DNA of 64,000 bases from Patescibacteria group bacterium (GTDB lineage: Bacteria > Patescibacteriota > Patescibacteriia > UBA2591 > JAQUPP01), in the NCBI GenBank assembly GCA_028717225.1, contig JAQUOF010000002.1, forward strand, positions 19,249-83,248, written 5' to 3'. The number at the start of each line of letters is the position of its first letter. Positions within the stretch are counted from its first letter, which is position 1. Shown here in pieces: positions 36,740-53,720 of this stretch. The notes under the pieces are model-generated. The model was not told where the DNA came from, ran no database searches, and saw only the letters and a list, made by a program, of their open reading frames with translations. The position numbers were made by a program, and so were the translations under genes.

Positions 36740-37465
36740 ATGTGGATAACAAATATCAATAAAATTAAGAATTTTTGCCTTAAATTGTTTTTTCCAATCA
36801 ATTGCCTTGGTTGCGGTCAAGAGAATTATTTTATTTGTCCAAATTGCTTGGAAAATATCCCTATTTTAGACGAATTAACTTGCCCTATTTGCCATAAAAA
36901 AACAATTGACAGAAAGGTTTATTATAAATGCTATTTTAATTTAGACGGCGTTATTATTGCGGTTAATTATAATCAACCGCTGGTCAAAAAAGCCATTCGC
37001 AATTTCAAATACGCGCCCTATTCTTTCCCTCTGGCTAAAAATCTGGCTTTTCTAATCATTAAACGGCTTAGAAAATCACCTGTTTCCATTTCTCATTTTA
37101 TAAAAAATAATTTCGTTTTAATGCCTATTCCAATTACGCGGCGCAAATTGGCTCAGCGGGGCTATAATCAATCATTGTTGCTGGCCAAAGAATTATCAAA
37201 TGAATTCAATTGGCCGATAATGGAAATTTTAACGAAAATTAAAGATACCAAGTCTCAGACCAATCTTAACAAAGAAGAACGGGAAAATAATGTTAAAAAT
37301 ACTTTTGTAATTAATGAAAATTTTACCAAGACCGAAATAAAAGATAAAAACATCATTTTAATTGATGATGTTTTTACGACCGGTGCGACCTTATTTGAAG
37401 CAGCCAGAATTTTGCGCCAATCCGGAGCCAAGGAAGTCTGGGCTATTGTTTTAGCGCATGATTAA
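36740..37465 (+). CDS. comFC: ComF family protein (ComFC; phosphoribosyltransferase domain)
   Basis: N-terminal double CxxC zinc finger. C-terminal PRTase motif IILIDDVFTTGATL. Confidence 0.75.
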   Translation: MWITNINKIKNFCLKLFFPINCLGCGQENYFICPNCLENIPILDELTCPICHKKTIDRKVYYKCYFNLDGVIIAVNYNQPLVKKAIRNFKYAPYSFPLAKNLAFLIIKRLRKSPVSISHFIKNNFVLMPIPITRRKLAQRGYNQSLLLAKELSNEFNWPIMEILTKIKDTKSQTNLNKEERENNVKNTFVINENFTKTEIKDKNIILIDDVFTTGATLFEAARILRQSGAKEVWAIVLAHD

Positions 37466-38494: not shown

Positions 38495-39526
38495 TTATTT
38501 GCAGCTTCCGGCAGCTGTTCCGGTCGTATTTTCCAAGACAGTCTGACATTCCGCAGGAGCAGTGGTAAATGATTTACAAATCGCTTGCTTATATCCTTCC
38601 GTGGTTCTGTCTCCCTGATAAATTACGCCGTTAATCAAAAGCGTCGGAGAACCTTCAATTCCGTATTTCTGATTCATGGTCACTTCTTGAGCCAATAAAG
38701 CCCCTGCTTCGCTTTTCTGACAAGCTGTTATTTCCTTGACATCAATACCGGCTGTTTTGGCAAAACCTTCCCATTTTTCTTCAACAGTTTGAGGATCAGA
38801 ACCCTTGTTGATTAAATCAACAAAATTCCAAAGTTTTTCCGGAGCATATTTTTGAACGCAAATTTCTCTGATATCCTGATTGACCTCGCTAATACCATGC
38901 ATTGAACAGTATTTTTCAGCTTCATCCAAACAGAAGTCTCCCCATTTGGCGCCGCTATTTTTGGCATAATCGGAATAAATCACATATCCCAATTTTATAT
39001 TCGCTTTTCCATTGAGCAATTTAATAACCGGAGCTATCGTATCTTCGGCTTGATTGCCGTATGGACAAAAACTCATAACGTATAAAGTAATATCCGGATT
39101 TGCGGCTTGAGGAATTTCAGCTGCTTTAGCTGTTTCTACTTGAGCCGCTTTAGCTTGATCGGCAACCTTTTGTATATCCATTGCTTCGGGAAAAAATAAT
39201 TTATTATCGCCCGTTACATAAGAATCAAAAGTTTGTTCTTTAATTTTAATGGTTATTTTGTAAAGACCGCTATCTTTAACGCGGCTGGCGGAAACTAAAG
39301 ATGCTGTTGTTTCGGGTGTTAAAAGGTTTTCATTAATAAATTTCATTGCTTTGCCGGAAATTTCATCAGTCGGAGTTTGAAAAAGAAAATTCTTAACATT
39401 AAAACCATTAGTAAAAATAGAAGCGATTAAAATAATAGCCATGGCCCAGTAAACTATAGCCCCCCAATTGATTTTCTTTTTTGATTTTGGCTTTATTTCT
39501 GTTACATTTTCTGTTGTGTTTTCCAT
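38495..39526 (-). CDS. Membrane-anchored DsbA-like thioredoxin-fold protein with a single-Cys CPYG active-site motif
   Basis: N-terminal TM. SFCPYG where CxxC is expected. GSPTLLINGVIYQG resembles the DsbA cis-Pro region. There are several additional Cys pairs. Confidence 0.4.
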   Translation of the reverse strand: MENTTENVTEIKPKSKKKINWGAIVYWAMAIILIASIFTNGFNVKNFLFQTPTDEISGKAMKFINENLLTPETTASLVSASRVKDSGLYKITIKIKEQTFDSYVTGDNKLFFPEAMDIQKVADQAKAAQVETAKAAEIPQAANPDITLYVMSFCPYGNQAEDTIAPVIKLLNGKANIKLGYVIYSDYAKNSGAKWGDFCLDEAEKYCSMHGISEVNQDIREICVQKYAPEKLWNFVDLINKGSDPQTVEEKWEGFAKTAGIDVKEITACQKSEAGALLAQEVTMNQKYGIEGSPTLLINGVIYQGDRTTEGYKQAICKSFTTAPAECQTVLENTTGTAAGSCK

Positions 39527-39609: not shown

Positions 39610-40596
39610 TTATTGATTTTTCAACTTGTTAATTTTATTATTTTTAAGAATAAATAATAAGCAGCAAAAAATAATCAAGGCAAATAAAATAATCAATAAA
39701 ATAAAGAAGGGTGTTTTTTTTGTCGGTTGTGGAAGAGTGATAATTTCTGTCCGCATGTTTCCGGCCATATCAACCGCTCTAACCTTAATAATACTATTCA
39801 AATTTTGATCAGTCAACAAATACGGACTGTCTCCTTTATTCCAATTTTCTTGATTTTTATCTCTTGTTTCCGAGATTTCGTAATATTTAAGACCGGATTG
39901 TTTATCAGTGGTGGAAAAAACAATAAAATATTTATTATCAAAAATCAAAGAATCTTGTTTGATTTCTACAGTGAATGGCTCGGGAAGTGTTTTATCTTCT
40001 TCCAATACCTCTAACCATTCATCTTTGGGAATAACTTGATTATTGGGCAAAATTGTCAAATTTACATTTTGAATGGTTGGTTTTAACGGCGTGGCCAATC
40101 CGTCATTTAATAATAATTCTGAATTGTCCAAAAAATTTATTTCAGTTTTTATTTGCTGCCCATTCGCGTTTAATTGATCTTGCGGAATTTCACGGACTTT
40201 AAAAATCATTTTAACCAGCAAATTGCTTAATCCCGGGTCGCCGGCTATATGGCCCGAATAACCGCCGGGAATGCCTCCGACAAAATTAATAATTCCTTTT
40301 TCTTTATCAATTGTCGGCGGTTGAGGAATAATAGTCAGAAGAGAATCCCCAAAACTTAAATCAACAGCTTCCAGTAAATCTTGGGGGTATTTTAAATTCG
40401 CTTCAATAACATTAATGTTTTCTTCCGCTTTTAAATTAAGTCTTGCTTCAATAATAAAGGTATCGCCTATTTTGTATTCGCCGCTTTTAGGCTCTAAATA
40501 TAAAGTGGCGGCAGAAACTTTATTAAAAATGCAAAATGAAAAAATAAAAATGCAAAATGAAAAAATTATATATTTTAAATTTTTAATTTTAGACAT
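39610..40596 (-). CDS. Secreted cohesin-like domain protein with a C-terminal TM anchor (328 aa)
   Basis: Signal peptide. YKIGDTFIIEARLNL...INVIEANLKYPQDLLEAVDL matches the cohesin pattern. An AGN-containing Ig-like segment (VRAVDMAGN) follows. The C-terminus is TM plus KNNKINKLKNQ. Confidence 0.5.
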   Translation of the reverse strand: MSKIKNLKYIIFSFCIFIFSFCIFNKVSAATLYLEPKSGEYKIGDTFIIEARLNLKAEENINVIEANLKYPQDLLEAVDLSFGDSLLTIIPQPPTIDKEKGIINFVGGIPGGYSGHIAGDPGLSNLLVKMIFKVREIPQDQLNANGQQIKTEINFLDNSELLLNDGLATPLKPTIQNVNLTILPNNQVIPKDEWLEVLEEDKTLPEPFTVEIKQDSLIFDNKYFIVFSTTDKQSGLKYYEISETRDKNQENWNKGDSPYLLTDQNLNSIIKVRAVDMAGNMRTEIITLPQPTKKTPFFILLIILFALIIFCCLLFILKNNKINKLKNQ

Positions 40597-40640
40597 TTGG
40601 GTTTATTTAGAAATTAGAAATTTCGCGCCAAGAGCGCGGA

Positions 40641-41777
40641 TTATCCCGTCCAATGATACAATAAAATACTTAAATCCTGATAATTAACCACTCCATCATT
40701 ATTTAAATCTGTTTTAATATTTTTTGGCTTGCCCCAATTATAAAGCAAAATAGACACATCAACAAAATTGACAATATCTCTTCCTTTTTTATTAAAATCA
40801 TGGTTTAAATTAGCGGGAATAATTTTAACAGATTCTCCTGACGATGGTTCTTCTGACGTTTCATCCTGCCCTAAAACTTGAAAATTCAAAGTTTTGGAAA
40901 AATCAGAAGCCAATCCTCCCTCAAGAGAAGATTTTATTTTAGTAGAATGAGCGCCATTTTCCAAAGGAGTTGTATCTAAATTATAAAAATAAGCGCCGAT
41001 TTGATCAGCTTCTACTTCTTTGATAAATGGATTTGAAGAATAAACATAAACAGAAACTTGAGATTTTGGCGCGGTTTGGCCAAAAATAATAATTTTTTCT
41101 CCTTTTTTGACTTGATCTTTATCTAGGTCAATGGTTGGCGGCAAAAAAATATTCGCAATGGTTGTAGTCATACCCGACTGAACGCTGAGCGTGTAGCTAA
41201 AACTTGGAGAACGCCTTCCTCTAAAATCTTCTGCCCACAAAGAAAGACTGCAGATACCCGGAGTAATTCCGGGAAGCTCAAATTTAAAATTTGCCATATT
41301 GTCTGCTTTAATAATACCTGCTATTTTTCCATCTTTTAGAATGGTTACATCAGTATTGGGGTAAGCCATTCCTTGAATAATCACTTTTGTTTCAGGTACA
41401 TAAAGTCCGCCACCGCCACCTCCTCCTCCACCGCCCGAGATACAATCGGAAGTATCAAAAGTACAATCAGCCTTACAACTTAAATTACCCCTGTTAAAAC
41501 CTTGTTTACCGCAAGTTTGACTATCTAAATCACTACCATCGCATTGTTCTCCCAATTCAACTACACCATTGCCGCAAACCGTGATTATAACCGAGACAGA
41601 AGTTTGAAAAGTTTCAGCTTGGGAAATCTTGGGAAATAAAGGTAAAATTAAAAATAAAATAACTGAAAAAATAGTCAGTTTATATTTTTTAGAAAATAAT
41701 AAATCCCGCAAAAAAGTGCGGGATAAAAATAACCAGTTTCGAAAAAATATTTCGTTCTGGTTATTTTTTATTGTCAT
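40641..41777 (-). CDS. Secreted Cys-rich-repeat protein with a C-terminal dockerin domain
   Basis: Signal peptide. CGNGVVELGEQCDGSD is a Myxococcus-type Cys-rich repeat. A G10 linker follows. The C-terminal dockerin pair is DFNKKGRDIVNFVDVSILLYNW and DLNNDGVVNYQDLSILLYHW. Confidence 0.6.
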   Translation of the reverse strand: MTIKNNQNEIFFRNWLFLSRTFLRDLLFSKKYKLTIFSVILFLILPLFPKISQAETFQTSVSVIITVCGNGVVELGEQCDGSDLDSQTCGKQGFNRGNLSCKADCTFDTSDCISGGGGGGGGGGLYVPETKVIIQGMAYPNTDVTILKDGKIAGIIKADNMANFKFELPGITPGICSLSLWAEDFRGRRSPSFSYTLSVQSGMTTTIANIFLPPTIDLDKDQVKKGEKIIIFGQTAPKSQVSVYVYSSNPFIKEVEADQIGAYFYNLDTTPLENGAHSTKIKSSLEGGLASDFSKTLNFQVLGQDETSEEPSSGESVKIIPANLNHDFNKKGRDIVNFVDVSILLYNWGKPKNIKTDLNNDGVVNYQDLSILLYHWTG

Positions 41778-41789
41778 AGCATTTTTTGA

Positions 41790-42713
41790 TTACTTTTTCT
41801 TTTTCTTCTTTAAAATCAAGCCCGCGATGCCGATTAAAATAATAACAGCTATACCGATTATCAGTAAAATTTTTGAGTTCAAATCAAATATTTTGTTTTG
41901 CTGTCCCGCAGTAATGGTGCCTTTGGGCATAATGCTTAAATGAATTTCTCCCGAGCTGACCACTTCATCTTTCTTGAAAATTTTATACTGCGCCCAATAA
42001 CTGCCGGCTTTTAATTTTGTTTTAAGTTCGGCAACCGCCCAATCGGTTTTAAACGGTTCAACTTTTCCTATTTTGGAAGTTTCAATTGTTTCTACAATAT
42101 TTGATTTGTCTTCGCCGTAAATTTCAAATTTTACTTTGCTCGGGGCGGCTTTTATATTGCCTAAATTCTCAGTTTGCATTGAGAATTTGATTATTCCCGG
42201 AACATATCCCCACCAAGCTTTATATCCTTCTTCCAAATCGGAAACTTTTATTCCTTTAATTTTGAAATCAAAAATATCTTTTGCCACGGTTAAATTAACG
42301 TCAATTTGTCCGCCTAAAAGTATGGAGACCGTTCCCTGTTCCGGCGCTCTGACCGGTGAAGTTTTTATTCTGATACTGCCTTTATATTCGCCGAATTTGG
42401 CGTTTTTCGGAACATCAATGCTGAAAATAATCGGCACTTGCTGAGCTCCGGCCGGCATAATAAATTCTTTTCCTTTATCAATTGTAATCCAGTCGTCTGC
42501 TTTTGGAACATTAGTAATTACTTCCACTTTCCAATCTTCAACCGGATCGCCTCTGACCAAAGTAATTTTTTTCTCGTAATGAGATCCCTGTCCAAGATTT
42601 TCATTGTCAATATAAGGAGGAGAAATACCAAAACCCGCTTTCGCCGTTGGGGCGATTACAAAAGCCAATAATAGAAAAGTAATTAAAATTAAATTTATTT
42701 TTTTCCAAACCAT
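41790..42713 (-). CDS. Secreted two-domain beta-sandwich-like protein with a C-terminal TM anchor and poly-Lys tail
   Basis: Signal peptide (AKAG). The C-terminus is ILLIIGIAVIILIGIAGLILKKKKKK. Confidence 0.4.
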   Translation of the reverse strand: MVWKKINLILITFLLLAFVIAPTAKAGFGISPPYIDNENLGQGSHYEKKITLVRGDPVEDWKVEVITNVPKADDWITIDKGKEFIMPAGAQQVPIIFSIDVPKNAKFGEYKGSIRIKTSPVRAPEQGTVSILLGGQIDVNLTVAKDIFDFKIKGIKVSDLEEGYKAWWGYVPGIIKFSMQTENLGNIKAAPSKVKFEIYGEDKSNIVETIETSKIGKVEPFKTDWAVAELKTKLKAGSYWAQYKIFKKDEVVSSGEIHLSIMPKGTITAGQQNKIFDLNSKILLIIGIAVIILIGIAGLILKKKKKK

Positions 42714-42762
42714 GTAATTGATAAATTTCTAATCTGCCGAATCTAAAAATTCTTTTTATTTA

Positions 42763-44550
42763 TTATGATCCAAAGCTTTCATTATTAATCTTGCCTTCAA
42801 TCGTATTTTGACCCGTATAACTTCCGGCTGCTTGTCCGGCTGGTACGTGCAAATACCAATAAGTATTTGCGGTTGCCGGCGAACCGGTTGTAGTGGTTTT
42901 AGCGCAGTTTAATTCAGCTTCAGCAGGCGTATACGCTAAATCCGCGTGACCTGTTCCGCCAAAACCTTGGCCGGTGGTCAAATTATAATTTTGTTGATCA
43001 GTGGCGATATAACTACCCGAGCAAGTAGGATAACTGCCGGTACATAATCCTTTACTTCCTGAGGTTCCACCGGAAATATTTTCATCCAAGCCGACATTGC
43101 CGGTTGCTTCTATAGTGGTTGTTTTCTCCGCACTGTCTCCATTCGCCGATACCGTACCATAAACAATGGTCGCAGTAGTTAAATCATAAGACATAAATTT
43201 ATCCATTTCATTGCTGCCGGTAGTGGAATCAACTAATCCCGTATCAGCCGCATCATCATCAGTGGCTTTGACGGCCGCGACCCAATTGTAAGAAGCTTTT
43301 GGCGCGCCGGTCACTGTCGCATCAGCGTGATATTGGATTGGGAAAGTGCAAGTCCAAGCAGCATCAGTGTCGGTTGCTCCGGTACAAGTATCCGCATCTT
43401 GAGTACAAGTTGGATTCCAAGAAGCATAAGCATCGGGATAGCAATCATTGGCATTATAGTCGCCGGATTCATCACAAGCTGTGGTGGCTTTTTCAGACAT
43501 TCTTAAATTAATAAAAGCTGAAGCAATTTCATTATCGGTTCCAGGAGTTCCTCCTTTGGTTACGCAACTGTTAGCGTCAACCACGGTAAATTTTACTTTA
43601 AACCCTGTTGTTTCCGCTTGTTCAGTAGTAAGAGTCATATTCCCCGCTTCGTCAGTATCAAGCACGGAAATAGTTGAAGCAGTAATACTTGGTGCAACAT
43701 TGCTGACAGTTGGAGTAGAATCCGTGGCATGAGGACTGCCGGAAGCTTCAAGTCCATGGCTATCAACTACGAAACCATAAGCGGCATAATCGCCGTCAGG
43801 TCTGAGTGTAGTGGCGCCGCAAGTCGGATTACTGGATTTCCCGGTATCTGAACACCAAGCTCCGTCCGTGCAAGTTAAAGTTGAAGCGACAAAAGCATTG
43901 CTTTTACAAACATATAAACTTACGGTGTCATTTGCCGTATCAGTATCGGAATCAGAAGCAGTGGTTGTCCAAGTCATGGTGGTTGCCGGAGCTTTTGGAC
44001 CATCGTCGGCATAAACAGTAAAGGCCGGTACATGATTAACTTTAAATGGCGAACCTGAATCGCTTGAACCTTGAGAGGAGGCAGAACAGGCCTGACTTGA
44101 AGAAGCGGCATCGCAAGCAAAAGCAAACCAAGCATTAGATTCCGCTGCACCGGAAGCTGCGGTAACACAAGTGGCTTTTGCGCCGCTGACAGTTGAACCG
44201 GAAACACACCAAGTGGAAGAAGTATCGCAAGTTGGTGCGCCGCCACCGGTTCCCGGATTAATCACATCTGTTTTACAAACAGCCAAATACCAATTATCGC
44301 TATTCGGATCAGTGGAAGTTGATTCAAAAGTTACGTTAGCGCCAATATTAGTCGGTGATGCGCCATAAGAAGCCGGATTTTCAGCCGGAGTTCCCAAAGA
44401 TGGGGCAGTATTTCCGACCGTAACCGAAGTGTCAGCCGAGTCGGCTTTAACTTCTGAATTTTTAAAATTAAGATTAAAACTGAAAACTACGGCGACGATT
44501 AAACTTAAAATTAAAAACCAAGGAAAAGATTTCTTTATGATTTTTGCCAT
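42763..44550 (-). CDS. Secreted S/T/A/G-rich, Cys-rich surface protein (595 aa). Its C-terminal ~300 aa are paralogous to the C-terminus of the 2490-aa neighbour.
   Basis: Signal peptide. The shared blocks TTTIEATGNVGLD, ADLAYTPAEAELNC and YWYLHVPAGQAAGSYTG match TTTVTATGNVSLD, AHADLNCC and VWWGLEVPSPQAVGSYTG in the giant. Confidence 0.5.
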   Translation of the reverse strand: MAKIIKKSFPWFLILSLIVAVVFSFNLNFKNSEVKADSADTSVTVGNTAPSLGTPAENPASYGASPTNIGANVTFESTSTDPNSDNWYLAVCKTDVINPGTGGGAPTCDTSSTWCVSGSTVSGAKATCVTAASGAAESNAWFAFACDAASSSQACSASSQGSSDSGSPFKVNHVPAFTVYADDGPKAPATTMTWTTTASDSDTDTANDTVSLYVCKSNAFVASTLTCTDGAWCSDTGKSSNPTCGATTLRPDGDYAAYGFVVDSHGLEASGSPHATDSTPTVSNVAPSITASTISVLDTDEAGNMTLTTEQAETTGFKVKFTVVDANSCVTKGGTPGTDNEIASAFINLRMSEKATTACDESGDYNANDCYPDAYASWNPTCTQDADTCTGATDTDAAWTCTFPIQYHADATVTGAPKASYNWVAAVKATDDDAADTGLVDSTTGSNEMDKFMSYDLTTATIVYGTVSANGDSAEKTTTIEATGNVGLDENISGGTSGSKGLCTGSYPTCSGSYIATDQQNYNLTTGQGFGGTGHADLAYTPAEAELNCAKTTTTGSPATANTYWYLHVPAGQAAGSYTGQNTIEGKINNESFGS

Positions 44551-44663
44551 ATATTAAAATTTAATTTATTAAAATTATTAAATTATTTATATTTTAATAG
44601 TATCACAAACTTTGAAAAAAACAATGTCTTTTTCAGTGGATAACTAATCAAATTTTTAAAAAA

Positions 44664-47600
44664 TTATTCGCACCAATCGCCCGATATTGACCATTCATTT
44701 TTGGCCGCGCTGAAAGTAATTGATCCAGTATAACTGCCCACTGCTTGAGGAGAAGGCACTTCCAATCCCCACCAAACATCTTTGGTCGCTTTGCTGCCGG
44801 AAGAAAAAGTTTTACAGCAATTTAAGTCCGCGTGAGCTCCGGGGTCAACCAATAAACTTGTGCCGCTGGCATAAGCAGTACTGGTAGCAAGGGCGTATTT
44901 TTGCTTTCCCACCGCAATGCTGTTTCCTCCCGAAGTCATATTTACGCCGTATAAATTTATATCCAAAGAAACATTACCCGTGGCGGTAACAGTTGTCGTT
45001 TTATCCAAAGGATCATTTTTAGCGCCGGCACCCAAACTGCCATAATTTATCGGTGAAGTAACATCTAAAGCTAATAAAGAATTTACATCAGGCGCGTCAG
45101 CCGCACTGTAACCTGAACCTGTTGAATCATCTTCGTCAGTAGCCTCAATAAATGCTCGCCAATATTGAGAAACCCAAGGAGTGCCCGTATCAGTCGGATC
45201 AGCAAAAAATTGCATTGAAATTGTGCAAGTATAAACAGCGTCAGTTCCGGAACAAGAAGTTTCAGTGCAAGAAGCAACACTGTAACAATTATTATCATTG
45301 GCTGAACAGGCCTGGGCGCTTGTTACTCCGGAACGATAAATTTTTGCCGTCACTCCGGTAATAGTATCGCATCCATCCGGATCTGAAACATCGGCTGTGG
45401 CTGAAACTGATTTAGTGGTATTCTCAATCAAATCAATAGCCACTTGGCCATTTAATTGAACATCGCTCACGGTCGGCGCCTGACCGCCGCCGGCCGTAAT
45501 ATCGGCTATTTTTGTATAACTATCCAATTCGGAAGTTGCGTTTCTTGCTTTAAAACAATAAACCGTGCTGTCCAAAGCATTGGCGGTAAATTGAAAACTG
45601 TATTCCGCTTCAGTAAATTGACTGGCAGTCAAAGTAATACTGTTTGTTTGATTGGACGCATTTTCTATTATTTTTCCGGCCACAAAAGCATAGTTACTTG
45701 GAATGCTTAATTGTCTTGTAGCCGCTGCTTGATCAACAAAATAAGTGGAGGCGGACATACAAGCGGCTTCGCTGCCGCAACTTCCGGCAACCGGAACATC
45801 AGTGTAAGTTTCGTCTCCGCAAGATCCTCCTGTTTGAACCGCGTATTGCAAACGATAATTATAACCGCTGGCAGTTGCCGTAGTATTTTTAAAAGAAAAT
45901 CTTAATCTGATATTTGTTGATAATGGCTGACTGGTTGTCGCATCCTCGGCCGCTTTCCAGGTGGCCGCCGTACCCGACCCTGTTTCCTCACTTCCATAAG
46001 TTAATAAACTATTATTTGTAGAATTATAATCAGCCGTAATCCAAGCAGTGCTTCTGGCGGTTTGAGAAAGACGAACCTCATCTATTTTTCCTTCTAAATA
46101 ATTCGTATCAGCGGTTCGGCCAATATCAAAATTACTGGCATTTTCAGCCGTGCCGGTCGTGACGGTTACATATTGCCATGCGTCGGCCGCTAAGGTACTG
46201 GTGACAACACCATTAACATAAATTGTTGGTGTGCCGGTAAAACCGGTCACAGTTACCGTGCCGCCGCTGACCCAAATATATTTTGTAGTGCTGGTAAGAT
46301 TAATAAAATATTCAGTCGTAGTTTCCGGATAAATCCAAAAACTTACGGTTTTAACAGTGCTTGGTCCGGTGCCGATATCAATATAATCATTGCTTCCGTC
46401 AAAACTATCAGCGCCGTTTATTTGACCAACCGCGCCGCCGGTTACTCCATTAATACAACCTCCATCTATATTATGAGTAGTGGAATCCAACTCATCAATA
46501 AGTATATATTTCATAGAATAGGGCGAAGAACTGCCTGTTCTCCAAGCTCCTTCAAGCACGGGCTTGATTGCGTATTTTGAAATCCTGGAACGGAAGGCAA
46601 GGTTAGTTGAAGTGGTATCACTGATAGCCATTCTGCTTCCGAAATTGGCTCCAGCATCAGTACTTTTATAATATACGGTTTGACCTGTACCGGAATTATA
46701 CATAGCGGTTACGTAAACAACATCTCCATAAGCAACGATTGATGCGTAACAATGATTATTTCCCGCATCAAGAGTGATAGTACTTTCCCAAGTGTCATCC
46801 GCGTTTTTTCTGGCATATTTCAAAGGTCTGTAGGTCGGACCATAACCACCCCAAGCAACATGAAGACGATTACTGGCATCCATAGAACTGATAACATGCG
46901 ACCAAACATCAGAATATGTTCCTCCTGATATATCTGTCCAGCTTCCGGCCCAAGTCCAAGTCGGACCCGCGCTGTAAGTCGCTTTTTGATATTCAATTTT
47001 TCCGGCTATAGCAGCCACTATATGTACATTCCTGCTGGAATCAACTTGAATAACCGGCATTGTCCACGCATCATCCGTGGCTAAAGTAGTCGGACTGGCA
47101 CTCCAATTACCGGCTGAATTATTTTCATAATATACATTATAGGTAGTACTGTTATTAAAAAATACCCAAGTTACATGGACAACTCCAGCTGAATCAACCG
47201 CCATACTTGCGTCAGATACACCATTTGTACCTGTCGCTCCTTCGTGAACGGTTTCTTCACTCCCGACATCCCAACTCGTACCATTCCAAGTTAATTTTCT
47301 GTAAAATATCCAGTGTTTAAGATCATTGGAGTCAGAATATATAAGATGGATATCTTTGCCATTCGGATCAACGTCAACAGTCGGAAGGTTTCCTTTTCCG
47401 GGCGTGCTTCCGATTTGAGTTTCATCAGTCCAAGTAAGTCCATTGTCAGTACTTCTCTTCCACCATAAAGTTCGGTCGCTGGTGCCAGCTTTGGCATAAA
47501 ATAAATGAAGAGTTTGACTATCATCGTCAGTCCTGACTAAAGTTCTTGAAAAAGTATCTGACACGTGCGTAGTATCGGCGCTTACCACTGTTCCCTGAGA

Positions 47601-50600
47601 AGCAATATTTAAATGATGCACTGATTCAAAATCAGAATCCCAAACATTGGTCGGATCTTCTCCATTAGCCGTGTCCGTGGTTCGGTAATAAATAAAAAAT
47701 CTGTTATCATCGCTGATCGCGGTTCTAACATTTGGAATTTTTACCCAGACTTCCCCTGTGTCCGCGGTCTGATTAAATGATTCTCTTTCATATTTTAAAA
47801 GAGTTGTCCCGTCAAATTGAGTAAACCTGATGTCATATCCGTTTGCGTTAAAATTTGACAAATCAATTCCCGGAAAACTGGCCAAACTTACCCGAACAGG
47901 AAAATCAACCAAATCAGAAGTTATTTTACTGTTATCAATAGTCAGCATTCGCCGAGTCGTGTATGTCAAACCGTCAACAGTCCAACTTCCGTTTTCTCCT
48001 CCATCATCATTTCTCCAGCGAAAATGAGTTTCGTCAACATTCGGAGGAGTATAAATAGTTGCCTCCGCATATTTTGTGTAAGTAAAATTTGTGGCGGTTC
48101 CGCCATTGGTTAAACGAAAACAATAAGTTCCTCCGGCCGTGGCCGCAGTCAAAGCTTTGATTGAATATTCAATTTCCGCGAATTCCGTACTGGCCAAAGT
48201 AATGCCGGCCGTAGTGCTTGACGTATCTTTTTGGGCAGCATTGGTAGTTTTGAAAGTTGTATTTTCGTCTGTCACCTTACCATTGGCAAAATTGGCTACA
48301 TTGGTCGTATCATTACCGTCGGTCAAATTTGATGAATCAGACATATCCCAATCGCCATTTGCCGCGCCAACATCAGTCCAAGAAACAATAGCTCCGCAAG
48401 TGGTAGATTTTGCTCCATACTCAAGACGATAAGTGATTGCCGCAGATGAACAAGTGCCTTCATTGGAAGCTTCTATTCTAACTCTTGCAGTTGTATTTTT
48501 TGCCAAACTGCTGAGCACAGTGTCTTCCGTACTGCCGGTGGCTGAAGTCGCGGCTGATTCCGAGCCATCATCATTTCTCCAATGATAATGTATTTGCTCA
48601 ATAGTTGGAGAACTATAAACAGTCGCTTCGGGATATGTTGTATAAGTAAAATTTGTAGTAGAACCGGCATTGGTTAAACGGAAACAATAAGTTCCTCCGT
48701 CCGTCGCGGCAGGAAGAGCTTGGATTGAATATTCAATTTCAACAAAATCAGTAGCAGCCAAAGTAATACCGGCTGTAGTGCTTGACGTATCTTTTTGGGC
48801 GGCATTGGGAGTCTCAAAATTGGTATTTTCATCTGTCACTTTACCATTGGCAAAATTAGCAACATTGGTTGTGTCATTTCCATCAGTTAAATTTGATGAA
48901 TTAGACATATCCCAATCGCCATCTGCTGCGCCAACGTCAGTCCAACTGGAAATAGCCGCACAAGTGGTAGATTTTGCTCCATATTCAAGACGATAAGTGA
49001 CCGCGCCTGATGCACTGGCACCTTCATTGGAAATTTCTACTCTGATTCTTTTAGTTGTGCTTTCCGGCAAGCAACCAAGGGTTGTATCTTCAGTATTGCT
49101 GGTGGCTGAAGTCGCGGCTGATTCCGAACCGTCATCATTTCTCCAGTGATAATGAATTTGCGTAAGATTTTCAGCCGGCGGCGCGATATCGGCAACCGTT
49201 TCTCCAAAAAGATCATCATCGTCATCATCATACCAAACCACATATAATCTTTCCGTACTTAATAAATTACCGCGCATATATCTGTAATCATCTGCTCCGG
49301 AATCTATGGCAGATGATTCAGCGCTCCAATTAGTACCGCTGTCAGTAGAACTTTTATAATACACATTTACTGACGATCCTAGTGTTCCTCCTTTCACGTA
49401 AGCCACATAAACATTACCGGTATTTTCATCAATTAAAGTTACGGGGGCAGCAGTAACATCACTGTTTGTTATAACATCTGTTTTCGCAGTCCAACTTCGC
49501 GTACTGTCGGAAAATGTATAAAATTTTATATCATTCGTACTGAAACCGGTATAATTAGAAAAGGCTAAATAAACATTGCCGGTAGATTTTTTTATAGAAG
49601 CTGAAAACCATCCGTAACCGGGCTTACTATTATCATTCATCGCGCCAACAGTAGTCCAGCTTGTCGCCCATGTATCAGTTGATTCGGCATAAACCAAAGA
49701 GTAAACATTATGGTTGGTTGGATCCGCTTTAATGGCAATAATGTCATTATTAGTCAATAAAGGAAGTATTTGAATCTGATCTCCCGACACAGTACTCCAG
49801 GCCGCCGGCGACGTTGTAGTCCATGTAGCTCCATTGCCATCGGTTGATTTAAATATTTGACCACCGGTCGGCGTACTCGCTGATTGAAAACCGGCAAAAA
49901 GATAACCGCTTCCGCCTTTGGTAATATATGGCGCAGGGTTGGTAACCTCAGTAAAAGTTGTGGCTGTACAAATTGTCACTAAACCCAGGGAACGCAGAGT
50001 GTCACCATTGGTATCCAAATATGTATACCAAAGATCACTTCCTGTGTCTTCGGCAGCGGCAATATGAATTTTTGTCCCGCTGGTATCGCCCGGCGTCCAT
50101 TGATCGTACCAAACCGAAGCAACTGTCCAATTTTTACTTGTATCAATAACCACAGGATTGCCCCAAGTTGCGCCCTTGTCAGTAGTTTTTTTATAAGCCA
50201 AATCTTGCGAAGTGAGATCCATAAAAAAAACATAACCAACTGTGTCACTGATAAAAACTACAGCCGGTGAAGGACCTGCTTCATCAGTACCATCAACTAT
50301 ATCTGAATCAATCGTAGCCGCGGCATCAGACGCGATTTGCCAATCTCGCGCTTCTTCAAATTGGCCGATTTGCAACGGTCCCAATAAAAATATATAAGGG
50401 CTGACATCCGGCGCGTCAAATTCATATTTCAATTCATAACTCTCCCCTGCTTTCCAATCAGCGTTCCAAAAAATTTCTTTCGTATTCGGATCATTTGAAT
50501 TTCTGATTTCTGATTCGGAATTTATAATTTGGAAAGAGTCCGGAATTTTTTCTACAATTTCTCCGTTAAAATCCTGGTTTGCTTTTATTTTCAATTTCAT

Positions 50601-52136
50601 CTCGTAATTCGCCAGCGGATAAATTCTGGTCGGTCCGATTCTTTCAATTTCAAAAGACACGGAATCGCGGACTTCAAAAGAGTCGGTTATTTCATAACCA
50701 TTATCAAGATTGGTGAGAGTTATCGCGTAAGTCCCCGCTTCTCCTGTCGGATAATAAGCAAAATAATCCGGCACATCAATCACGTTGTCCGGTCCGCATT
50801 GGCCGCTGTATTGAATTGTTCCGTCTCCGGTTGATAATTCCGCTGAAATTTTTGATTTTTTATTTTCAATTTTTAATTTAAGATTCGCGTCGCAGATTGT
50901 GTGCCCGTTATCTTTCAAAACCGCCATTTGCAAATAGGCTGTTTCATTGGGCAAATAAATTGATTTGTTGGTATTTAATGTCAAAACGCCCCAAGTAAAT
51001 TCTTGAATTGTTTCTTTATCGCCTTGTTTGATTTTTAATTTATAGAGACCGGGCTTGAAACTTCTCTTATCGCCGGAACGCGAAATTTTTACTCTATTGC
51101 CTTGATTAATCAATCCGTCCTTGCTTTCCTTGCCCATCGGATCAACTAAAACAAAATCTTTTTTCTCTTTCTTGAAAAAGTTTTTTATTTTCGCGAATAA
51201 ACTTTCCGTTAATTCAAAAGTCGGTTCTTCGTTGTTTTTAAAATTCTTTATTTCTTTAATCGGTTCTTGCTGTTCTAAAACTTTTTCCGGCTGTTCTGTG
51301 GTTGTTATTTCCAGCCAAGCCGCGTCCAGATACACTGACGATAATTCAGAATTTGAAGAATAAGTGAATCTGAATTTCAAATTTTCCAAATTGTCCCAAT
51401 TTTTAAAAATCGGCAAAGCGTCAAGAAAATAACCGCCGTTTAAATTATTGGAAATTTCGTCTTTCAAATCAAATTCATTTAATTTTTGCCAAGTATTATT
51501 AAAATAATATTCAATTTGCAGCTTGTCTCCTTCTTGTCCTTTACCGGCCAAAGACATTCTCAATTGGACATTCTCAATTTTATTTTCTTTGAAACTCTCT
51601 GAAACTGAAAAATTTGAAATTTCTAAAATTTTCTCAACAGTCTGCGGCTGTATCGGCGCTTCTATCAACGGCTCAGAAATTGGCGGCTCTACGGTTGGCG
51701 CTTCAATTATTGGCTCAATTTCCGGCGCTTGCTCAATTGGATTATTAATATCCGGTGGAGTTGAGGTTGAATTTTCAGCAGTAATTTCTTCGGCTTGCGC
51801 CACGCTGTTTTTAAATAAATCCTTTATCTTATTTAAAATTACGATTAAAAATTGTTTCGGATTTCTAATTTCGGATTTTGAAATTTCCGTCTGAACGGAC
51901 GAGAGATAAGCCGAATTTTCTTGATTAAATTCTTCAAAAGCCGCATTTTGCGTTAAATCCTGAGTTAAAACCGCTTGCGGATTCTGCCAGTCGCCCGAGA
52001 AAGCAGTGGGAAAAATTTTTATTTCATTTGTTTCCGCCGCTTTGGTTAATGGACTGTAAAATAAAAAACAAACCATGCCGATTAAAAACAAAGCAGTGGT
52101 TAAAATAAAAACAATTGATGATTTGGAATATCTCAT
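44664..52136 (-). CDS. Giant secreted surface protein (2490 aa) with BNR/Asp-box repeats, LamG-like lectin domains and internal ~213-aa tandem repeats
   Basis: N-terminal TM/signal. There are at least 5 SxDxGxTW Asp-boxes (YKKTTDKGATW, FKSTDGNGATW, YKSSTDSGTNW, WKRSTDNGLTW, YKSTDAGANF). A LamG_3-like block is VKTVSFWIY...IDEVRLS. The IHYHWRNDDGSE repeats are listed separately below. Confidence 0.7.
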   Translation of the reverse strand: MRYSKSSIVFILTTALFLIGMVCFLFYSPLTKAAETNEIKIFPTAFSGDWQNPQAVLTQDLTQNAAFEEFNQENSAYLSSVQTEISKSEIRNPKQFLIVILNKIKDLFKNSVAQAEEITAENSTSTPPDINNPIEQAPEIEPIIEAPTVEPPISEPLIEAPIQPQTVEKILEISNFSVSESFKENKIENVQLRMSLAGKGQEGDKLQIEYYFNNTWQKLNEFDLKDEISNNLNGGYFLDALPIFKNWDNLENLKFRFTYSSNSELSSVYLDAAWLEITTTEQPEKVLEQQEPIKEIKNFKNNEEPTFELTESLFAKIKNFFKKEKKDFVLVDPMGKESKDGLINQGNRVKISRSGDKRSFKPGLYKLKIKQGDKETIQEFTWGVLTLNTNKSIYLPNETAYLQMAVLKDNGHTICDANLKLKIENKKSKISAELSTGDGTIQYSGQCGPDNVIDVPDYFAYYPTGEAGTYAITLTNLDNGYEITDSFEVRDSVSFEIERIGPTRIYPLANYEMKLKIKANQDFNGEIVEKIPDSFQIINSESEIRNSNDPNTKEIFWNADWKAGESYELKYEFDAPDVSPYIFLLGPLQIGQFEEARDWQIASDAAATIDSDIVDGTDEAGPSPAVVFISDTVGYVFFMDLTSQDLAYKKTTDKGATWGNPVVIDTSKNWTVASVWYDQWTPGDTSGTKIHIAAAEDTGSDLWYTYLDTNGDTLRSLGLVTICTATTFTEVTNPAPYITKGGSGYLFAGFQSASTPTGGQIFKSTDGNGATWTTTSPAAWSTVSGDQIQILPLLTNNDIIAIKADPTNHNVYSLVYAESTDTWATSWTTVGAMNDNSKPGYGWFSASIKKSTGNVYLAFSNYTGFSTNDIKFYTFSDSTRSWTAKTDVITNSDVTAAPVTLIDENTGNVYVAYVKGGTLGSSVNVYYKSSTDSGTNWSAESSAIDSGADDYRYMRGNLLSTERLYVVWYDDDDDDLFGETVADIAPPAENLTQIHYHWRNDDGSESAATSATSNTEDTTLGCLPESTTKRIRVEISNEGASASGAVTYRLEYGAKSTTCAAISSWTDVGAADGDWDMSNSSNLTDGNDTTNVANFANGKVTDENTNFETPNAAQKDTSSTTAGITLAATDFVEIEYSIQALPAATDGGTYCFRLTNAGSTTNFTYTTYPEATVYSSPTIEQIHYHWRNDDGSESAATSATGSTEDTVLSSLAKNTTARVRIEASNEGTCSSAAITYRLEYGAKSTTCGAIVSWTDVGAANGDWDMSDSSNLTDGNDTTNVANFANGKVTDENTTFKTTNAAQKDTSSTTAGITLASTEFAEIEYSIKALTAATAGGTYCFRLTNGGTATNFTYTKYAEATIYTPPNVDETHFRWRNDDGGENGSWTVDGLTYTTRRMLTIDNSKITSDLVDFPVRVSLASFPGIDLSNFNANGYDIRFTQFDGTTLLKYERESFNQTADTGEVWVKIPNVRTAISDDNRFFIYYRTTDTANGEDPTNVWDSDFESVHHLNIASQGTVVSADTTHVSDTFSRTLVRTDDDSQTLHLFYAKAGTSDRTLWWKRSTDNGLTWTDETQIGSTPGKGNLPTVDVDPNGKDIHLIYSDSNDLKHWIFYRKLTWNGTSWDVGSEETVHEGATGTNGVSDASMAVDSAGVVHVTWVFFNNSTTYNVYYENNSAGNWSASPTTLATDDAWTMPVIQVDSSRNVHIVAAIAGKIEYQKATYSAGPTWTWAGSWTDISGGTYSDVWSHVISSMDASNRLHVAWGGYGPTYRPLKYARKNADDTWESTITLDAGNNHCYASIVAYGDVVYVTAMYNSGTGQTVYYKSTDAGANFGSRMAISDTTSTNLAFRSRISKYAIKPVLEGAWRTGSSSPYSMKYILIDELDSTTHNIDGGCINGVTGGAVGQINGADSFDGSNDYIDIGTGPSTVKTVSFWIYPETTTEYFINLTSTTKYIWVSGGTVTVTGFTGTPTIYVNGVVTSTLAADAWQYVTVTTGTAENASNFDIGRTADTNYLEGKIDEVRLSQTARSTAWITADYNSTNNSLLTYGSEETGSGTAATWKAAEDATTSQPLSTNIRLRFSFKNTTATASGYNYRLQYAVQTGGSCGDETYTDVPVAGSCGSEAACMSASTYFVDQAAATRQLSIPSNYAFVAGKIIENASNQTNSITLTASQFTEAEYSFQFTANALDSTVYCFKARNATSELDSYTKIADITAGGGQAPTVSDVQLNGQVAIDLIENTTKSVSATADVSDPDGCDTITGVTAKIYRSGVTSAQACSANDNNCYSVASCTETSCSGTDAVYTCTISMQFFADPTDTGTPWVSQYWRAFIEATDEDDSTGSGYSAADAPDVNSLLALDVTSPINYGSLGAGAKNDPLDKTTTVTATGNVSLDINLYGVNMTSGGNSIAVGKQKYALATSTAYASGTSLLVDPGAHADLNCCKTFSSGSKATKDVWWGLEVPSPQAVGSYTGSITFSAAKNEWSISGDWCE
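47860..49140. repeat. Internal tandem DNA repeat of ~639 bp (2 full copies plus a partial) inside the giant gene
   Basis: Protein repeats start at IHYHWRNDDGSE near residues ~1000 and ~1213, with a partial HFRWRNDDGGE at ~1425. The plus-strand shadow ORFs 48139-48432 and 48778-48996 are near-identical and offset by 639 bp. Confidence 0.7.
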
Positions 52137-52142
52137 AAAAAC

Positions 52143-53720
52143 TTATTTTTGATTTATTTTCCTTATCCTGGAGTCTCTGTTTTTTTTCTTTAAAAAACCC
52201 TTAATCAGAGTATCGTATTTCTTGAATTTCCTTTTGAAAAACATCAAAAGAGCAATCAAGATAACAATAATCGCCAAAAGGAAAAATATAATAAAGATTA
52301 CGGCGCCGGAAGGTATAATATGACTAAAAAATTCAATGCCGGTTTTTATTACTTTTAAGCGGACTTTTTTTGAAGGAGAACTGACTTGCTCCGGAGAATG
52401 AGCGGTCGCGAAAACAAGATACTCGCCCGGAGGCAGTTGCTCTTTATAAATAACAGCCCAGCTGCCTTGTCTGTCGGTTTGCGTTGTTTCCTTAAATTCC
52501 TGAATGCCTTCTTGTTGAACAATGGAAACGATAATATCTGAAAGCGGAGCGGCTTCGCCTCTAACAATTAATGGAGTGGATATGGTGGCTGATAAAACTT
52601 CTCTTGTGCAATGATTGATTGTCGGAGTTGGAAAAAGAATAATTTTAAAACTTTCAGATTTTTCCGAAAAATTTCCCGCTTGATCATAAGCTCTTATTGA
52701 TAAAATATGATCGCCCGGATTTGTTTTTGGTATTTTAAATTCAGTTTTTTCAACTTTAATAAAATCTCCTTGATCTATTTTTTCTTCAAAATAGGCCAAA
52801 CCTGAAACAGAATCGCTGGCTGATACATTAATCAATGGCGTAGTGGTATATACATCTTCATTTTTGGAAAAAATAATTTTTAAATCTTGGGGCGATTGAG
52901 AATCAATTTGTATTTTAAAATGAGATATTGCCGACCACCCGGTCGCGGTGCGCGCCTTAAGATGAAAATACCAAATTCCATCTTTCACGTCCGAATAAGA
53001 AATATTATTATCCAATCCCTCACCGGCATTATCCGGAATTGTTTTTTCCTTTTGATCAAAAATAAAACTGAAATTGGAAATACTGGAATTCCATGGCCAA
53101 GAAATCATTGGATTTTTGTTTGAATACCATTTTTGCTGATCCGGATGAGTTGAAGAAGAAATCTTTAATTGAGAAGGAATAATTTCAGGTTTAGGTTCGA
53201 TCGGAGTCGGTTTTGGCAAACCTGTTTCAAAACACGTAAGACTGGCTTGTCCTTTGGAACTTAAAATGTTAGTGCCTAAGCCGTCATTGGCTAAAACTTG
53301 AGCCCCGGAAATTTTTACCCAAGCCGTTCCGCTTGCCTTGGCTTTAAAATTAATAATCAAAATTTTGCCCTCGCCCGTAAAACCCGGATTCGGTATGCCT
53401 CCGGAAAAAGAAATACTTCCATCTTTTTGAGAATAACTTGGTTCATTAAACCATAAATTAATAATTGATCCTGATTTTGAAAAACTGGAAAATTCCAAAG
53501 TATTATTTGAAAAAGAAAGTGTGGATTCCACTAAATTTATCGGAGCACCGGCGTTAACGATAAAACGAATCTGAACGATTTTGTCCACTTCAATTGAACT
53601 TGTTGCCGGGAGAAAATAAAGAGAGGCGGAAGGTTTGGTTTCAGCCTGCGCGAAAAAAGGAATAAAAAACGAGAAAATAAGAAATGATAAAAATATAGTA
53701 TTGAATATTTTTATTTTCAT
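52143..53720 (-). CDS. Secreted cohesin-like domain protein with a C-terminal TM anchor (525 aa), paralogous in architecture to 39610-40596
   Basis: Signal peptide. LYFLPATSSIEVDKIVQIRFIVNAGAPINLVESTLSF is cohesin-like. The AGN motif is IRAYDQAGN. C-terminal TM plus KRKFKKYD. Confidence 0.5.
   Translation of the reverse strand: MKIKIFNTIFLSFLIFSFFIPFFAQAETKPSASLYFLPATSSIEVDKIVQIRFIVNAGAPINLVESTLSFSNNTLEFSSFSKSGSIINLWFNEPSYSQKDGSISFSGGIPNPGFTGEGKILIINFKAKASGTAWVKISGAQVLANDGLGTNILSSKGQASLTCFETGLPKPTPIEPKPEIIPSQLKISSSTHPDQQKWYSNKNPMISWPWNSSISNFSFIFDQKEKTIPDNAGEGLDNNISYSDVKDGIWYFHLKARTATGWSAISHFKIQIDSQSPQDLKIIFSKNEDVYTTTPLINVSASDSVSGLAYFEEKIDQGDFIKVEKTEFKIPKTNPGDHILSIRAYDQAGNFSEKSESFKIILFPTPTINHCTREVLSATISTPLIVRGEAAPLSDIIVSIVQQEGIQEFKETTQTDRQGSWAVIYKEQLPPGEYLVFATAHSPEQVSSPSKKVRLKVIKTGIEFFSHIIPSGAVIFIIFFLLAIIVILIALLMFFKRKFKKYDTLIKGFLKKKNRDSRIRKINQK

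Follow-up and report, generated by a model that had tools for sequence, protein, structure and literature searches.

Do six consecutive genes for exported proteins, located between lgt and gatA in the metagenome-assembled genome of a Patescibacteria group bacterium, encode parts of one complex at the cell surface, and how would such a complex be held together? The genes are located on a stretch of 64,000 nucleotides (assembly GCA_028717225.1, contig JAQUOF010000002.1, positions 19,249 to 83,248), which is called the window in the following and to which all coordinates of the genes and their domains refer. An earlier note, made from the sequence alone, had described an adjacent cohesin-dockerin pair in this region. 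To our knowledge, host attachment and recognition in the Patescibacteria, or candidate phyla radiation (CPR), are largely unknown beyond type IV pili. The six open reading frames (ORFs), here designated A to F, were found exactly where the note had placed them, and all of them, including the domains described below, are encoded on the minus strand: the short membrane-anchored cohesin protein A (39610-40596; 328 amino acids, aa), the secreted dockerin protein B (40641-41777; 378 aa), the membrane-anchored two-domain protein C (41790-42713; 307 aa), the secreted, Thr/Ala/Gly/Ser-rich protein D (42763-44550; 595 aa), the secreted giant protein E (44664-52136; 2490 aa) and the long membrane-anchored cohesin protein F (52143-53720; 525 aa). 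The intergenic gaps within this run comprise 6 to 113 nt. B is 100% identical to the NCBI protein PHG83_00955 of a 'Patescibacteria group bacterium'; exact-sequence look-ups of B and F in a contig index gave no match, and comparisons were made with relatives.

On balance, the region probably represents a non-cellulosomal display cassette with membrane-anchored cohesins and a dockerin, whose products self-assemble to a complex at the cell surface. A hydropathy scan revealed an N-terminal hydrophobic, signal-like segment in all six proteins and a C-terminal transmembrane (TM) segment followed by a K/R-rich tail in A, C and F, as the note had claimed for A and F; B, D and E show no such segment. 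The proteins thus exhibit an anchor-plus-cargo topology, with a signal peptide and a C-terminal TM segment in A, C and F and a signal peptide alone in B, D and E. A and F are type-I membrane proteins, each of which carries one cohesin at its outer tip on Ig-like stalks of two different lengths. B is secreted, has no anchor of its own, and comprises a Cys-rich head, two Ig domains and a C-terminal dockerin. Two further features had gone unnoticed: the region is an instance of a widespread, conserved cassette, and D and E share a C-terminal module, which seemingly pairs with C.

The cohesin assignment, which the earlier note had regarded as its weakest call, is borne out by the predicted fold of F. 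The cohesin of F (residues 25-165; 53226-53648) is located at the N-terminus behind the signal peptide and is followed by an Ig-like stalk with a Big_13/OmpL47-type domain (residues ~297-357; 52650-52832) and further Bap/Lap-like Ig repeats, and by the TM helix (residues ~470-496) with its basic tail. An AlphaFold2 (AF2) model of residues 25-165, built on the alignment of the F family, was all-beta with a mean pLDDT of 96.5. In a Foldseek search of the PDB with this model, the top 50 matches were all cohesins (E down to 5.5e-10, TM-score up to 0.78), among them dockerin-bound cohesins as well as the non-cellulosomal one of A. fulgidus (2xdh). According to the model, F possesses the nine-stranded beta-sandwich (jelly-roll) fold of cohesins. 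Homologs of F (491 sequences) stem nearly all from CPR bins, and many are named 'cohesin domain-containing protein' by NCBI. Among 50 aligned family members, 33 matched the Pfam family Cohesin (PF00963) at E<1e-3 (best 3.7e-10) and 45 matched Big_13.

A is paralogous to F (blastp E 7e-10) and was matched by the hidden Markov model (HMM) of the F-family cohesin with an E-value of 2.3e-21. From this paralogy we infer that A shares the cohesin fold in its N-terminal domain (residues ~29-165; 40102-40512), which is located behind the signal peptide and precedes one OmpL47/Big_13-type Ig domain (residues 226-282; 39751-39921; OmpL47-type in NCBIfam), a TM helix (residues ~296-318) and a basic tail. 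As A and F possess a single cohesin each, they are membrane anchors and not scaffoldins; the term 'scaffoldin-like', which had been applied to them, is overstated and better replaced by single-cohesin membrane anchors. A loop motif, L-A-N-D-G-x-G-T, is nearly invariant late in the F-family cohesin (residues ~143-150 of F) and has its counterpart in LLNDGLAT of A (residues ~163-170). This motif is not known to be a feature of classical cohesins; it may mark the binding site.

In B, the signal peptide is followed by a DUF4215-like Cys-rich module (residues 66-112; 41442-41582), a poly-Gly linker, two Ig-like Big_6 domains (residues ~125-310; 40848-41405) and a dockerin of two segments (residues 322-378; 40644-40814), which forms the exact C-terminus of the protein (WTG). 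A phmmer search aligned the last 57 residues across both segments to the dockerin of Cel48 from B. cellulosolvens (2y3n_B, E 3e-4). The dockerin consensus of the B family, ADxNxDxxxNLxDFSILLYWWGxPxNxxADLNxDGKVNLxDFSIMLYYWTG, is a textbook two-segment sequence and also ends at the C-terminus of the protein. Furthermore, 26 of 40 aligned B homologs matched Pfam Dockerin_1 (PF00404) at E<1e-3 (best 1.2e-12); the other Pfam matches in the family were Big_6 (38/40) and DUF4215 (3/40). The second segment of B is canonical (DLNNDGVVNYQD; segment 2, DLNNDGVVNYQDLSILLYHW). In segment 1 (DFNKKGRDIVNFVDVSILLYNW) the helix is kept and the loop is two residues longer; the insertion in this first Ca2+ loop (DFNKKGRDIVNFVD) is specific to the clade of the window, and in most relatives of B both loops are canonical (ADxNxDGxxNLxDFSILLYWW). 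The alignment to 2y3n_B, the family consensus and the Pfam matches of the family all bear out the two-segment dockerin of the earlier note, and the C-terminus of B can be assigned as a type I dockerin, i.e. a tandem of ~22-residue units of an EF-hand-like Ca2+ loop and a helix. In the 64-kb window, the dockerin motif occurs in B only.

The B alignment was scanned against one genome per species. At least 576 loci with a relative of B were detected in species-representative genomes, and the cassette is carried by several hundred species-level genomes or more, from Paceibacteria, ABY1 and Microgenomates-type lineages. The best 80 loci belong to Nealson-, Wolfe-, Nomura-, Kaiser-, Lipton-, Portnoy-, Veblen-, Falkow-, Magasanik- and Komeilibacteria, Minisyncoccales and others; Ca. 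Microsyncoccus archaeolyticus PMX.50 (locus L041), an archaeal parasite cultured in enrichment, is among these carriers. Searches with the window proteins (tblastn) showed the order C-B-A-F on one strand almost everywhere. Where 3 kb or more followed B (66 loci), an A-like gene was present within 1.5 kb in 65 cases and an F-like gene within 4 kb in 65, with both present in 64; this adjacency of B, A and F is not due to chance. Of the 67 loci with sufficient space in front of B, 61 had a C-family gene immediately upstream of it, as detected with an HMM of C that was built without the signal and TM segments, since the TM region pulled in A and F. The dockerin HMM matched 84 ORFs in 1.35 Mb of DNA (loci plus window), and 84 of these 84 were the B gene; no other dockerin was present at any of the 86 loci. 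Exactly two cohesin ORFs were found in 68 of 87 loci, and all 175 cohesin ORFs encoded a single cohesin, which usually started close to the N-terminus (in the median, at residue 37 of the stop-to-stop ORF).

Some loci deviate from this pattern. F is shifted to the front in the window as well as in the closely related loci L001, L003 and L005, which results in the order F-E-D-C-B-A. In some genomes (loci L016, L017, L014 and L052) the cohesin genes are expanded to three or four per cassette, while the dockerin gene is still one, and one relative of B (P0216) carries two tandem dockerins; the stoichiometry therefore varies between lineages. Between B and A, a gene of ~130 aa for a PDDEXK_3 (PD-(D/E)XK nuclease-like) protein is inserted at L005 (18458-18847 of that locus) and L006 (5577-5969), and an unannotated ORF of ~130 aa occupies the same position at L068 and L071, so that this may be a recurrent insertion spot. 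The supplements of the Microsyncoccus paper contained no expression entries matching the cassette.

A second line of evidence was provided by a mirror-tree test with 61 loci, for which the dockerin alignment comprised 59 columns. The distances of the dockerin and of the A-cohesin were correlated (r 0.56), and a partial correlation of 0.38 was retained when the Ig region of B, C and the F-cohesin were controlled for (0 of 2000 permutations), whereas the Ig region of B showed a partial r of only 0.05 with the A-cohesin (478 of 2000 permutations). The test backs a specific link between the dockerin and the A-cohesin; as shared history is incompletely removed, it is suggestive only. The assumption of the earlier note that cohesin and dockerin belong together is thus backed by co-divergence as well as by the strictly conserved neighbourhood of their genes in CPR lineages.

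B has no anchor and is always encoded beside two membrane proteins with a cohesin at the tip; hence, the simplest reading is that its dockerin plugs into A and/or F. The dockerin of B is predicted to bind the cohesin of A, and probably that of F too, in a Ca2+-dependent manner. This binding would tether the Cys-rich head of B to the surface at one or two defined heights.

The remaining secreted proteins, D and E, have their last ~160 residues in common, and this part is termed the 'w' domain here. It comprises residues 424-588 of D (42787-43281; E 1.5e-42 with the w-domain HMM) and residues 2328-2484 of E (44685-45155; E 7.5e-50), and a tblastn search showed residues 366-589 of D to be paralogous to residues 2257-2488 of E. 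Its motif is YWG(L/I)xVP, and small forms have NWTL. D contains 19 Cys and Ig/cadherin-like modules; no Pfam family was matched. E contains 25 Cys and four Asp-box motifs. Its N-terminal region (residues 1-605) is conserved in relatives and includes an MG2-like Ig domain (E 4e-5). The variable middle contains two BNR/Asp-box propeller-like regions, which matched BNR_2 below the threshold (24.2 and 17.7 bits vs 31.4; E 2.6e-5); in addition, E possesses a DUF2341 domain (residues 1432-1504; 37.7 bits, above the Pfam threshold) and a LamG-like domain (residues ~1960-2035; Laminin_G_3 27.2 bits vs a cut-off of 27.6). Two near-identical tandem repeats of ~188 aa (48042-49184; residues ~985-1365), which start with IHYHWRNDDGSESAATSAT (HYHWRNDDGSE), matched no Pfam family; a third, diverged copy of the repeat motif (THFRWRNDDGGENG) is located at residue 1374. 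Relatives at ~45% identity encode one protein of 1497-1566 aa, in which the N-terminal 600 residues of E are joined to a D-like part, so the BNR/LamG/DUF2341 middle of E is a lineage-specific insertion.

The w domain is not confined to D and E. Its HMM matched 66 ORFs in the loci, always at the C-terminus of proteins ranging from ~100 aa (the domain alone) to 2600 aa, and almost always at position -2 or -3 relative to B, i.e. directly upstream of C; in many loci, this place is taken by D-like genes of ~580 aa. A search of 1.84 billion representative proteins yielded 922 clusters, 512 of them at E<=1e-10, and in nearly all of the 150 clusters listed the domain was situated at the extreme C-terminus (proteins of 108-4157 aa). 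The N-terminal payloads of these proteins are mostly unannotatable, apart from a few with LamG, propeller or Gly-rich domains. C and the w domain co-vary in form: two-domain C proteins are preceded by a D-like protein of ~580 aa, whereas short forms of C (~200 aa), which consist of the N-terminal domain and the TM segment and have lost the second domain, are preceded by a w-only protein of ~170 aa.

The AF2 model of C (pLDDT 88) agrees with the earlier description as a TM-anchored two-domain protein. It shows two beta-sandwich domains of the PapD-like/ASH type (residues 27-143, 42285-42635, and residues 150-262, 41928-42266), and, after a flexible, disordered linker, the TM helix (residues 279-304) with a KKKKKK tail. 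The C family yielded 228 matches, all of them 'hypothetical', and no Pfam domain was detected in it. In the model, the architecture of C (signal peptide, two tandem Ig-like domains, C-terminal TM helix) is that of enterococcal WxLIP proteins. The short forms of C keep the N-terminal PapD-like domain, which is regarded as indispensable and proposed as the part which holds w. By analogy with WxLIP and WxL, the N-terminal domain of C would hold the w domains of D and E, perhaps via beta-strand complementation. The w domains held by C would in turn display the variable BNR-propeller, LamG and Ig parts of D and E. Together with the tethering of B, this would equip the cell with an outer layer of binding proteins that is held non-covalently and can be exchanged.

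Several results weigh against this interpretation. On the side of the cohesins, the whole proteins A and F remained below the PF00963 cut-off of 24.1 bits (A 15.4 bits, E 0.021; F 17.7 bits, E 0.0042), as did the isolated N-terminal domain of F (20.9 bits, E 4.4e-4), and Dockerin_1 scored 13 bits on B (cut-off 22.9; E 0.12). In Pfam, one of the checks that the earlier note had proposed, A, B and F themselves thus stay below the thresholds, and the matches come from relatives of F and B. A profile of the F family found only Ig-like adhesin repeats (Lap, Bap) and no cohesins among the PDB sequences; together with the exclusively cohesin fold matches, this characterizes the family as remote in sequence and clear in fold. 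Owing to the two-residue insertion in the first loop of B, Ca2+ binding may not be canonical. In the mirror-tree test, the partial correlation of the dockerin with the F-cohesin was only 0.16 (17 of 2000 permutations), and signals of this kind can come from shared history or shared expression. On the side of C and w, C shows fold matches of a kind generic to PapD-like/ASH Ig domains, at TM-scores of only 0.26-0.31, and the match to EfmWxLIP1 (9i1y/9i25) is no better than those to other PapD-like/ASH proteins. The WxLIP models gave no match at E<=10 in three short forms of C, and PF06030 and PF11797 (E<=1) were absent from the 25 Pfam families most frequently matched by 47 C-family members. A profile search of the PDB with the C family returned no WxLIP, and the w domain matched neither Pfam WxL (PF13731) nor the WxL chain of 9i25 in the PDB. 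Membership of C and w in the WxLIP and WxL families was rejected on these negative results, and WxL is kept solely as a functional analogy. Two candidate members of the cassette were rejected as well: SEML1_0315, the essential dockerin protein of Southlakia, is encoded by a stand-alone gene (927 aa) with unrelated neighbours, and the DsbA-like gene beside A has a counterpart beside one other locus only (weak match, L015).

Some of these results are also what would be expected if the dockerin and the cohesin-like modules at the tips of A and F were real folds without mutual pairing, belonging to independent, co-regulated adhesins. Each module would then bind a host glycan, a host protein or peptidoglycan, or the dockerin would serve as a Ca2+-stabilised structural cap. 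The scores of the window proteins below the Pfam thresholds, the lack of cohesin sequences in the PDB profile search and the atypical first Ca2+ loop of B fit this explanation. Cohesin-like folds also occur in adhesion molecules for which no dockerin partner is known, such as TMEM132 (PMC6030884), and non-cellulosomal modules without a known partner are described as common by Peer et al. (2009), as cited in PMC9012536. However, a cassette of one dockerin and two cohesins, with B, A and F adjacent in 64 of 66 loci, is difficult to account for unless its members are functionally linked, the dockerin co-diverges specifically with the A-cohesin and the Ig region of B does not, and B, being without an anchor, needs a tether to stay on the cell. 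Unpaired adhesins are therefore considered unlikely.

Alternatively, C might be a membrane-bound PapD-like chaperone or base, at which w proteins (the ~170-aa forms elsewhere, D and E here) polymerise by donor-strand exchange to a pilus- or S-layer-like structure, with the cohesin-dockerin pair fixing or capping it. The generic fold matches of C and weak matches to DUF4402 are all that speaks for such a fibre or layer, and the former are of a general Ig/PapD-like kind, and the latter stay under the threshold. Of the components of chaperone-usher pili, i.e. a PapD-like periplasmic chaperone, an usher and donor-strand pilins, the cassette contains no usher, nor does it contain another assembly platform. 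Moreover, the proteins that end in w are mostly very large and heterogeneous, as would sooner be expected of an anchoring domain than of a polymerising one. Polymerisation at C is hence quite improbable.

A degradative 'mini-cellulosome' for the breakdown of host cell walls or glycans, with the BNR propellers of E as sialidase-type hydrolases and other cargo brought in by the dockerin, would agree with the BNR_2 (sialidase-like propeller) and LamG/ConA-like lectin domains of E and with the classical role of cohesin-dockerin systems in organising glycoside hydrolases (GHs), but it is very unlikely and largely refuted by the domain content, since BNR_2 scored below the threshold, the middle region of E is missing from relatives at 45% identity, the sole dockerin resides on B, which has no enzyme domain, no multi-cohesin scaffoldin is present, and no catalytic GH, carbohydrate esterase, polysaccharide lyase or carbohydrate-binding module (CBM) family was detected in the six proteins. 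The statement of the earlier note that the region is not a cellulosome thus holds, all the more as only one dockerin is encoded within ~10 kb on either side.

If the display cassette with its cohesin-dockerin pair is accepted as the best description of the region, its purpose remains to be considered. The displayed variable proteins might mediate contact with a host or substrate surface, which would be the most likely use in a host-dependent, ultra-small bacterium; a role in host attachment is plausible and pure inference. A more far-reaching proposal, for which we have low confidence, is that a hitherto undescribed, radiation-wide cassette with two orthogonal non-covalent anchors, i.e. the cohesin pair with the dockerin and the PapD-like anchor with the w domain of fast-evolving giant proteins, constitutes an exchangeable host-recognition apparatus of the episymbiont. 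In that case the w domain would be a new CPR cell-surface targeting signal, from which adhesin repertoires could be predicted. If the cassette self-assembles as proposed, it offers a concrete and testable molecular candidate for the surface or attachment layer of CPR bacteria and a simple binding assay of cohesin against dockerin with and without Ca2+; cultured carriers, e.g. Ca. Microsyncoccus archaeolyticus (enrichment), are available. The w domain, with its 922 clusters, would then serve as a C-terminal sequence tag for cataloguing variable CPR surface proteins, and cohesin-dockerin biology would be extended to a TM-anchored, non-enzymatic format of one dockerin to two cohesins.

On one side, the genes A to F are flanked by gatA (Amidase, E 1.2e-157). 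On the other side, a gene for a DsbA-like thioredoxin (38495-39526, minus strand; 343 aa, N-terminal TM segment, Thioredoxin_4 E 4.8e-8) is located between A and lgt (E 4.5e-74). The six secreted proteins, which the earlier note had counted between lgt and gatA, are therefore joined by a seventh exported one. A conceivable role of this DsbA-like neighbour is the oxidation of cysteines, which are numerous in B, D and E. Downstream of lgt, the type IV pilus assembly gene pilM (35591-36634, minus strand; PilM_2 E 1.1e-47) adjoins a gene for a ComF-like phosphoribosyltransferase with a double zinc ribbon (36740-37465), the sole ORF of at least 150 aa on the plus strand, so pilus and competence genes neighbour the surface cassette. 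The strand bias is extreme: of the 40 ORFs with 150 aa or more, 39 are located on the minus strand, and almost all 2-kb bins show a negative GC skew; both are consistent with a single replichore and co-directional transcription. The G+C content is 0.42 at 42-50 kb compared to 0.35, which coincides with the Thr/Ala/Gly/Ser-rich proteins D and E. A promoter and terminator scan of the region gave counts near the shuffled expectation, and operon boundaries were not evident from it.

Two more genes of the window might belong to the surface proteins. An orphan ORF of 1243 aa (16628-20359, minus strand), which contains no w domain, no dockerin and no Pfam family at E<=1e-3, shows a raised G+C content (0.40-0.42 vs ~0.35) and may encode a further surface protein. 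A protein of 887 aa with two strong Laminin_G_3 matches (58255-60918, minus strand; E 1.5e-50), encoded 4.5 kb from the cassette, is kept in the 88%-identical relative L001 (931 aa) and is probably a lectin-like surface protein.

Non-cellulosomal cohesins and dockerins are known from all domains of life (Peer et al. 2009, as cited in PMC9012536), and in archaea of the ANME groups they have been discussed as devices for cell-cell contact (PMC9012536). NCBI labels some of the CPR proteins considered here as cohesin- or dockerin-containing, and among the essential proteins of the saccharibacterium Southlakia is one with a dockerin domain (PMC10633639). A non-exhaustive full-text search for cohesins and dockerins in CPR, Patescibacteria, Parcubacteria and Saccharibacteria revealed no paper describing the cassette. 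It resembles the non-cellulosomal pairs of A. fulgidus, ANME archaea and the toxin complexes of C. perfringens in that few modules are found in organisms that do not degrade cellulose and no GH cargo is present; the F model matches 2xdh and the C. perfringens cohesins with TM-scores of ~0.75, and a role in surface organisation or cell-cell contact is proposed as in the ANME case (PMC9012536). Unlike in those pairs, the cohesins of the cassette tip TM-anchored Ig stalks and form a fixed short/long pair, encoded next to one dedicated dockerin protein.

A cellulosome consists of a multi-cohesin scaffoldin that gathers dockerin-bearing enzymes, usually together with a CBM; in the cassette, none of these was found, and the cargo is a Cys-rich plus Ig protein. 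The proposed capture of a secreted protein by a cell-bound cohesin via a C-terminal two-segment dockerin is similar to that by the anchoring scaffoldins SdbA, OlpA and OlpC of A. thermocellus, and the best fold matches of F include the OlpA and OlpC cohesins in dockerin complexes (3ul4, 4dh2). Here, a C-terminal TM helix replaces the SLH domains or sortase anchoring of the clostridial scaffoldins. In eukaryotes, the TMEM132 family, for which no dockerin partner is known, has the same module order as F, namely cohesin-like, bacterial-Ig-like and a single TM helix (PMC6030884). In the WxL (Csc) clusters of Firmicutes, a TM-anchored two-domain WxLIP (DUF916-DUF3324-TM) binds large and small WxL proteins, for which strand insertion has been proposed (PMC10599100); the structure of a WxLIP-WxL complex is PDB 9i25. 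The position of the TM-anchored two-domain protein C beside proteins with a C-terminal w domain is analogous to these clusters, whereas neither C with WxLIP_PGBD/HBD nor w with WxL shows a sequence match, no LPXTG partner is present, and the genes occur in CPR bacteria instead of Firmicutes and are joined to a cohesin-dockerin trio. The interaction modules of the cassette are already known, and its format is, as far as the literature search goes, new: a short/long pair of TM-anchored single-cohesin proteins with one non-enzymatic dockerin protein, coupled to a PapD-like anchor and a new C-terminal module, and conserved across a radiation.

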